Part shown: one piece after another, positions 16,457 to 17,218 of the stretch
How the letters are laid out: each line of letters begins with the position of its first letter
Position numbering within the stretch: the first letter of the stretch is position 1
Origin: a virus
Virus genome (UHGV): UHGV-1430915
Strand: one strand, 5' to 3'
Length of the DNA stretch: 64,000 nucleotides
Translations under genes and position numbers: made by a program
Notes under the pieces: model-generated
Database searches by the model: none
What the model was told of the DNA's origin: nothing
Seen by the model: only the letters and a program-made list of their open reading frames with translations

Positions 16457-17218
16457 ATGCGACGACTGATCATTATCTCCGGTGCTGGTTTGAGCGCTGA
16501 ATCTGGTATCCCCACTTTCCGATCTGGTGGCACTGCAATGTGGGAGAATTTCAGCATCGATGAGGTGTGTAACATCCACACCTTTGCCAAGAACTACTAT
16601 AAGGTGCATGACTTTTACAATGCACGGCGTGTAGCTCTGGGCAGTGTTGATCCTAACCTTGCACATCTCCGGATCGCTGAGTGGTATTCACGCTGGTCTG
16701 GTCGTGTGATCAACCTGACAACCAATGTAGATGATTTGCTGGAGCGTGCTGGTGTAAAACATGAAGATATTTTACATGTCCACGGATATTTGCCAGAAAT
16801 AGTCTACGAGGATGATGAAGGGAGTAACGTCATTAAAGACATTGGATACTCTGAGGTAGACGCAAGCAAGTATACTTGGGTTAAGCCTAATGTAGTGTTT
16901 TTCGGAGAAGTAGCTCCAAAGTATACAGACATGTATGACCTGTTGACTTCTCTGACGAGCAATGATATGGTTATCCTTGTAGGGTGCTCCAACACAGTTA
17001 TCAATTTTAACTGGGAGCTATTCCCTGCCTGTAATAAGGGAACCAAACTGCTGATCGTTAACAAATACGACTCACAGCATTTAGGGGAGAATGGCATTTC
17101 ACGTAGTGACATTTACCAGTATGAGGATCGCGGCATCCCAGTTTGGTTTAACGGGGCGGTTGACGCTTTCTCTGATAAAACATTTATTGACATCGTAGAA
17201 AACTTTATGGAACTGTAA
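16457..17218 (+). CDS. Sir2-family protein (NAD-dependent deacylase / ADP-ribosyltransferase-like) lacking zinc ribbon
   Basis: motifs GAGLSAESGIPTFR, TTNVDDL, catalytic HVHG, PNVVFFGE; no CxxC...CxxC pair. Confidence 0.75.
   Translation: MRRLIIISGAGLSAESGIPTFRSGGTAMWENFSIDEVCNIHTFAKNYYKVHDFYNARRVALGSVDPNLAHLRIAEWYSRWSGRVINLTTNVDDLLERAGVKHEDILHVHGYLPEIVYEDDEGSNVIKDIGYSEVDASKYTWVKPNVVFFGEVAPKYTDMYDLLTSLTSNDMVILVGCSNTVINFNWELFPACNKGTKLLIVNKYDSQHLGENGISRSDIYQYEDRGIPVWFNGAVDAFSDKTFIDIVENFMEL

Follow-up and report, generated by a model that had tools for sequence, protein, structure and literature searches.

A zinc-less sirtuin of the CobB/SIRT5 side in an RNA-repair gene unit of a Vequintavirus, with a possible role in the removal of RNA 2'-phosphate

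The virus genome UHGV-1430915, of which a stretch of 64,000 nucleotides was analysed (the window), was found to contain a sirtuin gene that is co-oriented and tightly packed with genes of RNA repair. The sirtuin is tentatively read, with a probability of roughly 0.4, as a nicotinamide adenine dinucleotide (NAD+)-dependent remover of RNA 2'-phosphate in tRNA repair, and among its grounds are the anatomy of the operon and the identities of the neighbours (RNA_lig_T4_1, cREC_REC, AAA_33 and Metallophos). The RNA-repair operon is the most informative evidence on the sirtuin and was absent from the original prediction, which had been made from the sequence of this DNA.

In this reading the phage heals and seals broken RNA (tRNA) to counter host anticodon or other metal-independent RNases, and the sirtuin would be an accessory enzyme of that pathway with NAD+ as its co-substrate. 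The Rnl1 ligase would seal the RNA break, followed by the removal of the blocking 2'-phosphate by the sirtuin, in the manner of Tpt1/KptA. A phosphate oxygen would attack C1'' of NAD+ with the release of nicotinamide, and the His-activated 2''-OH would resolve the adduct into the 1'',2''-cyclic product, in parallel, step for step, with deacylation by sirtuins. In SIRT5 and CobB, a Tyr/Arg pocket binds the distal carboxylate of succinyl-lysine. The corresponding Tyr54/Arg57/Arg58 pocket of the phage protein would hold the adjacent phosphodiester, at a spacing that would approximate, on uncomputed general geometry, the one between the succinyl carboxylate and the scissile carbonyl.

The sirtuin gene, its partners and the adjoining features were located in the window as follows.

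14093..14740 (-), calcineurin-like phosphoesterase, divergent (PF00149 and PF12850, E ~4e-6; PHROG 547, E 5e-52)

14655..15065 (-), P-loop polynucleotide-kinase-like protein (AAA_33), divergent (PF13671, E 1e-9; PHROG 2071 and 505; start taken from phage NHEP1)

15166..16101 (+), T4 Rnl1-family RNA ligase, first gene of the unit (PF09511, E 1e-14; PHROG 562)

16098..16448 (+), cyclic-phosphate processing receiver domain (cREC) protein (PF20274, E 5e-14)

16457..17218 (+), sirtuin open reading frame (ORF), phage-clade, zinc-less and class III-derived (253 amino acids; coordinates include the stop codon)

17233..17946 (+), MazG-like nucleotide pyrophosphohydrolase, a weak assignment (PHROG 671, E 1e-21)

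17953..17971 (+), strong terminator-like hairpin of 8 bp with 6 G-C pairs, followed by a T-rich tail, which closes the four-gene unit

18575..19858 (+), ATP-dependent DNA ligase, which accompanies the cassette in related phages

The order of the unit was found to be Rnl1-cREC-Sir2-MazG-like. The stop codon of Rnl1 overlaps the start codon of cREC (ATGA), and the sirtuin is separated by 8 nt from cREC and by 14 nt from the MazG-like gene. All five partners (Rnl1, cREC, the kinase, MazG and the phosphoesterase) were located within 2.4 kb of the sirtuin. The MazG-like assignment rests on PHROG alone, because no Pfam match and no match to a PDB sequence was obtained, and a gene of this type in the sirtuin neighbourhood has been called a member of the MazG superfamily (PMC9503650).

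Several minor features of the unit were also recorded. The hairpin AGCCGGGGCGATCCCGGCT (17953-17971) has a terminator-like score in either orientation, and transcription may thus be ended by it from both sides, between the MazG-like gene and the small ORFs that follow. The longest ORF of the kinase-like gene (14655-15221, -) has a TTG start and overlaps the start of Rnl1 as well as 98 nt of the phosphoesterase, but its P-loop domain starts only with the annotated ATG at 15065. Divergent promoters are probable in the 100-bp gap at 15066-15165, where a TTGACA hexamer is present, and no sigma-70 promoter was confidently assigned 5' of Rnl1 by the promoter scan.

Seven tRNA genes (Pro, Met, Thr, Ser, Tyr and Arg) were called by ARAGORN at 10346-11157 (-), 5 kb upstream. 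Phage tRNAs close to genes of RNA repair are in keeping with a strategy to withstand defences that cleave tRNA, and they were taken, together with a published prediction (PMC9503650, section 3.7.3), as a further argument for the RNA-repair reading. One tRNA call is odd, with a length of 99 nt (10590-10688) and a 4-base 'anticodon' atcc, and only five tRNAs are annotated there in NHEP1.

The neighbourhood was compared in 60 IMG/VR phage loci (41-94% identity) and the window's own locus, which make 61 loci in 24 subgroups, and the neighbour genes were identified by six-frame profile searches. A recognised RNA-end-processing gene was found within ~2.5 kb of the sirtuin at 43 of the 61 loci, in 10 of the 24 subgroups, and a Rnl1/kinase/phosphoesterase cassette, with or without cREC, was found with the sirtuin in five subgroups. 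The gene order differs in the Mydovirus-like phages, which contain Metallophos..Rnl1-cREC-kinase-x-Sir2-DNA ligase. The T5-like IMG/VR loci (subgroups 0, 2 and 9) contain a HAD_SAK_2 gene 118-317 nt downstream of the sirtuin and on the same strand, without exception (28/28), and two further T5-like genomes (L063 and L064) contain it ~280 nt upstream. HAD_SAK_2 is a 'Swiss-army-knife RNA repair' phosphatase, and its pairing with the T5-like sirtuin is a modest addition of this analysis. Several subgroups of sirtuins had no recognisable partner.

Two loci contain a sirtuin that bears the zinc ligands. In a 607-kb jumbo contig (L061) Rnl1 is located 1.2 kb upstream of the zinc-bearing sirtuin, and in a 279-kb contig (L062) RlaP is located 2.3 kb from it; the association with RNA-repair genes predates the loss of zinc. 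The recurrence of the linkage in divergent phages, with other partners and gene orders, argues for the RNA-repair reading. An arginase-family protein (PF00491, E 9e-76; L061 6818-7720), an unusual partner for either gene, was observed between Rnl1 and the zinc-bearing sirtuin of the jumbo contig.

Genomes with a cREC cassette were found to keep the sirtuin, even at a distance of ~30 kb. No KptA/Tpt1 gene, which was sought as the occupant of the sirtuin's slot, was found in 16 cREC loci, so that no displacement of one gene by the other was seen, and no KptA homologue was found in the window by phmmer with E. coli KptA (E <= 10). The retention of the sirtuin and the lack of KptA/Tpt1 in the window and in the cREC loci were counted in favour of the removal of 2'-phosphate by the sirtuin.

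The neighbourhood is already known in print. In 2022 Iyer, Burroughs, Anantharaman and Aravind (Viruses 14:1977, PMC9503650) described, for phages of proteobacteria, 'a distinct clade of sirtuins'. Escherichia phage V5 was named there as the prototype of a neighbourhood in which the sirtuin occurs with cREC, MazG, a T4-like tRNA ligase, a nucleotide kinase and, in some cases, a calcineurin-like phosphoesterase. A KptA-like removal of RNA 2'-phosphate by the sirtuin was proposed there from gene neighbourhoods. The present gene and its neighbourhood are the same as those of that clade (neighbourhood type 2; PHROG 2162), with no material difference, and the gene belongs to it. What is added to the clade here is modest, namely the derived loss of zinc, its co-variation with the Q89 to T replacement and with a remodelled substrate loop, the acidic charge, and the cases in which cassette and sirtuin are unlinked.

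A number of observations weigh against the removal of RNA 2'-phosphate. In phages of ~149 kb the cREC-Metallophos-Rnl1-kinase-ligase-MazG cassette is intact without a sirtuin, and the sirtuin lies ~30 kb off among unannotated neighbours. Part of the synteny may be inherited, since relatedness is common among the phages with the cassette. The kinase, the phosphoesterase and Rnl1 could finish a T4-style repair without a 2'-phosphate step. No fusion with an RNA domain was found, and the 10 multidomain relatives add only a second SIR2, WG-repeats or leucine-rich repeats. The sirtuin is strongly acidic, with an isoelectric point (pI) of 4.9 and a net charge of -13 (family median pI 5.1), whereas E. 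coli KptA has a pI of 9.4 and a charge of +6. The protein retains the residues that form the tunnel and pocket for acyl-lysine in CobB (C38, Y54, R57, V91, V146 and F148/F149), and the nearest zinc-bearing relatives occur in cellular contexts of protein-modification type, for example beside LplA. No experimental work on phage sirtuins, that of T5 included, was found in the literature. The RNA hypothesis is weakened somewhat by the unlinked cassettes and by the difference in charge from KptA.

The sirtuin-less cassettes of the ~149-kb phages correspond to the loci L079, L080 and L081 (contigs of L036, L035 and L034, respectively), and L081 was also found to be without Rnl1 and kinase near cREC. 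No Pfam match was obtained for the genes that directly precede the relocated sirtuins in these phages.

The assignment of the ORF to the Sir2 family was confirmed, and its similarity is far beyond chance. The ORF at 16457..17218 (+) starts with ATG and contains a GAGGA Shine-Dalgarno sequence 5 nt 5' of the start codon. It matched the Pfam SIR2 profile PF02146 with 94.3 bits (cut-off 24, E 1.1e-26) over profile positions 1-178 of 180, and it matched PHROG 2162 'Sir2' with E 8.7e-109. The four Sir2 motifs of NAD binding and catalysis that had been reported in it beforehand (GAGLSAESGIPTFR, TTNVDDL, HVHG and VVFFGE) were all found to be present.

The 15000-19000 region of the window has 99.1% identity with phage NHEP1 and is matched by 122 phage records, and on this similarity the window is a Vequintavirus, an rV5/FV3-like myovirus of E. 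coli. The sirtuin gene has 94-99% identity with copies annotated as Sir2 or as NAD-dependent deacetylase/deacylase, and such copies occur in 18 of the 20 Vequintavirus records listed, out of the 122 that match the region. In NHEP1 (PQ511146.1), the closest GenBank record, the Sir2 coding sequence is annotated from the internal Met28, which leaves out window positions 16457-16537 (L001 9458-9538, against an annotated start at 9539). The Met28 start would cut off the GAGLSAESGIPTFR motif, and the correct start is taken to be the earlier ATG, at 16457, which is preceded by the GAGGA ribosome-binding site.

The following residues and motifs were located along the ORF.

16481..16522 (+), NAD-binding/cofactor-loop motif GAGLSAESGIPTFR, residues 9-22, with G9, A10, G11, S13, S16, F21 and R22 invariant or nearly so in 77 members

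16568..16570 (+), C38, clade-invariant, placed by alignment at CobB A76 and SIRT5 A86

16616..16630 (+), anion pocket Y54-N-A-R57-R58 (FYNARR), equivalent to CobB Y92/R95 and SIRT5 Y102/R105

16718..16735 (+), TTNVDD, residues 88-93 (canonical TQNID), with a clade-invariant change of Q89 to T and with N90 and D92 kept

16775..16786 (+), HVHG, residues 107-110, with the catalytic His109, invariant and aligned with CobB H147

16787..16882 (+), residues 111-142, what is left of the zinc ribbon, free of Cys and made of three beta-strands with the conserved pattern YLPE...DIGY...W

16883..16909 (+), KPNVVFFGE, residues 143-151, the FGE substrate-staple loop, with K143, P144, F148, F149 and E151 invariant

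16982..17026 (+), clade-specific loop GCSNTVINFNWELFP, residues 176-190, in place of the canonical GTSGxVxP

The chemistry residues G9-A-G-x-S13, F21, R22, N90, D92 and H109 were found to be invariant or nearly so in the 77 members, and only the Gln of TQNID was changed (T89). The motifs TTNVDDL and VVFFGE span residues 88-94 and 146-151, respectively. FYNARR is identical in E. coli CobB, with Y54 and R57 invariant in the clade, and the equivalents of the CobB acyl pocket are kept at C38 (A76), Y54 (Y92), R57 (R95), V91 (I131) and V146 (V187). The position of CobB A76 and SIRT5 A86 is that of a small residue which enlarges the acyl pocket. Judged from these residues, the sirtuin is an NAD+-binding, His-containing and apparently catalytically intact enzyme with a conserved anion pocket. 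The remodelling of the substrate cleft in a clade-specific manner, with the chemistry residues intact, was counted in favour of the RNA-repair reading.

The sirtuin clade is placed by its sequences as a phage-specific branch off the CobB/SIRT5-like (class III) sirtuins. The best PDB sequence matches were SIRT5 and E. coli CobB (E ~5e-21), and the identity with the host CobB is 32% over 186 residues. The protein was found to contain the two-domain sirtuin fold, together with the class III Tyr-x-x-Arg pair and a small residue (C38) at the Ala86/Ala76 position. An AlphaFold2 (AF2) model was built from a 77-sequence alignment, with a predicted local distance difference test (pLDDT) score of 89.9 and a predicted template modelling (pTM) score of 0.88. 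In a Foldseek search with this model the top matches were all CobB, Sir2Af1 and SIRT5, and PfSir2A was also among the best fold matches. A comparison with CobB and with ThsA/DSR had been suggested as a structural check in the original prediction, and it came out on the CobB side.

This kinship argues for a CobB/SIRT5-like lysine deacylase for negatively charged acyl groups (succinyl, malonyl, glutaryl and possibly lipoyl), which would reset the acylation of host or phage proteins. Such a role is what homology suggests by default and is the main rival of the RNA-repair reading, with a probability clearly below even. Examples would be the activation of Acs, as suggested by Skliros et al., or the keeping free of acylation-sensitive lysines in phage ligases and translation factors, and the place of the gene in the operon would reflect the timing of co-expression and not a shared chemistry. 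Besides the direct homology and the identical FYNARR, the invariance of all the catalytic and acyl-pocket residues agrees with a deacylase, as do the acidity of the protein, which is shared with CobB, a cellular zinc-bearing relative beside LplA, and a suggestion in print (PMC5107563). The tight and repeatedly re-invented adjacency to RNA-end-processing genes is, however, left unexplained by it. All seven NCBIfam CobB models scored under their cut-off (best 120.9 bits against 243), one of the two peptide-staple loops, the Gln of the NAD pocket and the zinc module are all remodelled in the clade, and the host has its own CobB. From E. coli CobB and human SIRT5 (deacetylase/desuccinylase/lipoamidase) the phage sirtuin differs in the missing zinc ligands, in the Q to T change in TQNID, in the change of GTSGxVxP to GCSNxVINFNWELFP, in the low NCBIfam CobB scores and in its setting in an RNA-repair operon.

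Genes of NAD+ supply were found near some of the phage sirtuins. NAMPT or NAPRTase occurs beside or near the sirtuin in some phages, which fits any NAD+-consuming role and, for a deacylase, would be the usual pairing of consumer and salvage. In the Mydovirus-like loci L066/L067 (1-1133 and 12023-12720) a NAPRTase/NAMPT-family gene and a phosphoribosyl-pyrophosphate-synthase gene were observed ~5 kb upstream of the cassette, with NADAR and Band_7 proteins downstream, and in L059 (6057-7490) a NAMPT gene was observed immediately upstream of the sirtuin. In the Mydovirus-like loci and in L059 a consumer of NAD+ thus seems to be linked to genes of NAD+ salvage.

The original prediction was borne out in that no CxxC...CxxC zinc ribbon is present. 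The only cysteines of the sirtuin are C38, C177 and C192, with none in the 37 residues from HVHG to FFGE (residues 111-147), whereas E. coli CobB (K-12) contains four in the homologous segment. The 120 closest protein clusters (to ~49% identity) contain 0-2 Cys in this segment and in none a CxxC pair, and the sirtuin has no Cys4 ribbon in its small domain. In the AF2 model the Cys-free module (residues 111-140) had 10-residue block means of pLDDT of 95-96 and was still predicted as a ribbon-shaped beta-module, so that the small domain of the sirtuin is predicted to fold without zinc. A sirtuin small domain can, on this predicted structure, fold zinc-free.

An exhaustive profile search gave 7321 relatives, of which 166 had E <= 1e-30, and the best 150 were compared. 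Zinc-less proteins mostly occupied the top ranks, followed from about rank 18 on by proteins with a full ribbon, for example FLTELKCIKCENIIDIGYSEQNQSTNYLCQKCHSKL. The ribbon-bearing relatives share the clade hallmarks C38, Y54/R57, K143-P144 and the IGY hairpin, and in relatives of the type CxxC..IGY..CxxC the hairpin aligns residue by residue with the IKDIGYSEV of the sirtuin. Among the phage subgroups, 22 of 24 are zinc-less, all in medium-sized genomes, and two jumbo-phage copies contain 4-6 Cys. Because close relatives and the jumbo-phage copies keep the ribbon, the loss of zinc is taken as a derived loss of cysteines in a homologous ribbon and not as a sign of another ancestry.

The residue at position 89 was found to follow the state of the ribbon, with T in 35 and Q in 8 of the zinc-less proteins, whereas the proteins with four zinc ligands contain T in 6 and Q in 76 (Fisher p 3e-17, uncorrected for phylogeny). 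The loss also co-varies with the change of the GTSGxVxP substrate-staple loop to a near-invariant GCSN(Q/T)VINFNWELFP. The derived nature of the zinc loss and its coupling with two further changes of the cleft are a modest addition of this analysis.

Two zinc-bearing relatives were looked up; both occur in cellular contigs and one lies near a lipoate-protein ligase, which fits a protein-deacylase ancestor. The latter, P0141, was observed two genes downstream of LplA in a Mollicutes-like contig (L086 2060-5427), and this neighbourhood recalls the lipoamidase activity of CobB. The P0141 gene does not translate to the query under table 11, which suggests genetic code 4.

From the missing ribbon the protein had been placed beforehand with NAD-consuming defence effectors such as ThsA or DSR, and this part was not supported. 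The gene would then encode an NAD+-degrading enzyme (NADase), or a protein that interferes with NAD-derived defence signalling, with the chemistry of ThsA/DSR used by the phage; such a role is considered very improbable. The circumstantial points that agree with it are the zinc-less state, which is shared with many defence SIR2 domains, and the presence, in one related phage, of an Acb2/Tad1-like gene 4 kb before the sirtuin, on its upstream side. The SIR2_2 profile (PF13289, the ThsA/DSR type) matched the sirtuin with only 14.2 bits, under its cut-off of 24.5, as against the 94 bits of PF02146. The PADLOC scan of the sirtuin gave no credible match, the sole match being PDC-S65 (E 0.012, 33 residues). 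The sirtuin is a single-domain protein without a sensor or oligomerisation module, defence SIR2 domains were not its closest structural neighbours and no sensor or partner domain was found with it, and its zinc loss is late and derived within a CobB-like lineage. A lytic phage would itself suffer from the destruction of NAD+, and genes for NAD+ salvage are carried by relatives. With the defence SIR2 NADases (ThsA, DSR1/2, SIR2-HerA, SIR2-APAZ and Avs5) the sirtuin has in common the Rossmann-type SIR2 fold, and the zinc ribbon is absent in both.

The Acb2/Tad1-hairpin family is an anti-CBASS/anti-Thoeris sponge family, and the gene in question is located in phage ECO340P2 (L065 1940-2215), ~4 kb upstream of the sirtuin, among unannotated small genes.

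It is improbable that the sirtuin is an ADP-ribosyltransferase of the SirTM or SIRT6 kind, by which proteins, RNA ends or small molecules would be stably modified for host takeover or for the marking or protection of RNA ends. Protein deacylation or ADP-ribosyl transfer by the phage sirtuin had been named as possible functions in the original prediction, and both are possible. No Macro, NADAR or ARH eraser was found beside the sirtuin in the window, the catalytic His of the second, resolving step is invariant, and the structure is much nearer to the deacylases than to SirTM, so that neither the adjacent Macro-domain eraser nor the SirTM-like structure expected of a SirTM was observed.

The parallel with Tpt1/KptA, on which the proposed removal of RNA 2'-phosphate draws, is a functional analogy only. 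Tpt1/KptA acts in RNA ligase pathways in two NAD+-dependent steps, the attack of an oxyanion on C1'' and the resolution of the adduct by the ribose 2''-OH. The folds are unrelated, with an ADP-ribosyltransferase (ART) fold in KptA against a Rossmann fold in the sirtuin, and no sequence similarity exists between them. It is rather doubtful that the phage protein is the first sirtuin with a nucleic acid as its physiological substrate, a zinc-independent, CobB-derived and NAD+-using stripper of 2'-phosphate that converged on the chemistry of Tpt1/KptA. Its anion pocket would then grip the RNA backbone, and the coordinated loss of the zinc ribbon, the Q89 to T replacement and the remodelled staple loop would be signs of a change from peptide to RNA substrates.

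If a role in RNA repair holds, the chemistry of sirtuins reaches from proteins to RNA, and phages would possess, beside Tpt1, another solution of separate origin to the problem of the 2'-phosphate, as part of their counter-defence against tRNA-cleaving host nucleases. If the CobB-like deacylase is true, a lytic phage resets the lysine acylation of its host. Sirtuins of this family are found widely among the large virulent phages of enterobacteria that are used in therapy (T5-like, rV5-like and Mydovirus-like).

A phage Sir2/CobB without zinc ligands was described by Skliros et al. in 2016 (PMC5107563) for the Vibrio 'schizoT4-like' phages phiSt2, phiGrn1 and KVP40. The catalytic His and the acetyl-lysine tunnel were kept in it, T5 and other phages were named as carriers, salt bridges were modelled as the replacement of zinc, and the deacetylation of Acs was proposed. 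The Vibrio sirtuins resemble the present one in the absent zinc ligands and the kept catalytic His, and they belong to another phage group. The gene, the lack of zinc ligands and the two functional hypotheses had all been published before, so that little is added as discovery from the window.

Recurrent proteins were observed downstream of the sirtuin in other phages. A family of ~134 amino acids was found by BLAST clustering in 31 loci, with about two copies per locus at genes +3/+4, and it may be DUF7415. DUF7415 was the commonest Pfam family among the sirtuin neighbours (8 of the 138 proteins scanned) and is located ~1-2 kb downstream of the sirtuin in T5-like loci (L004-L023 and others).

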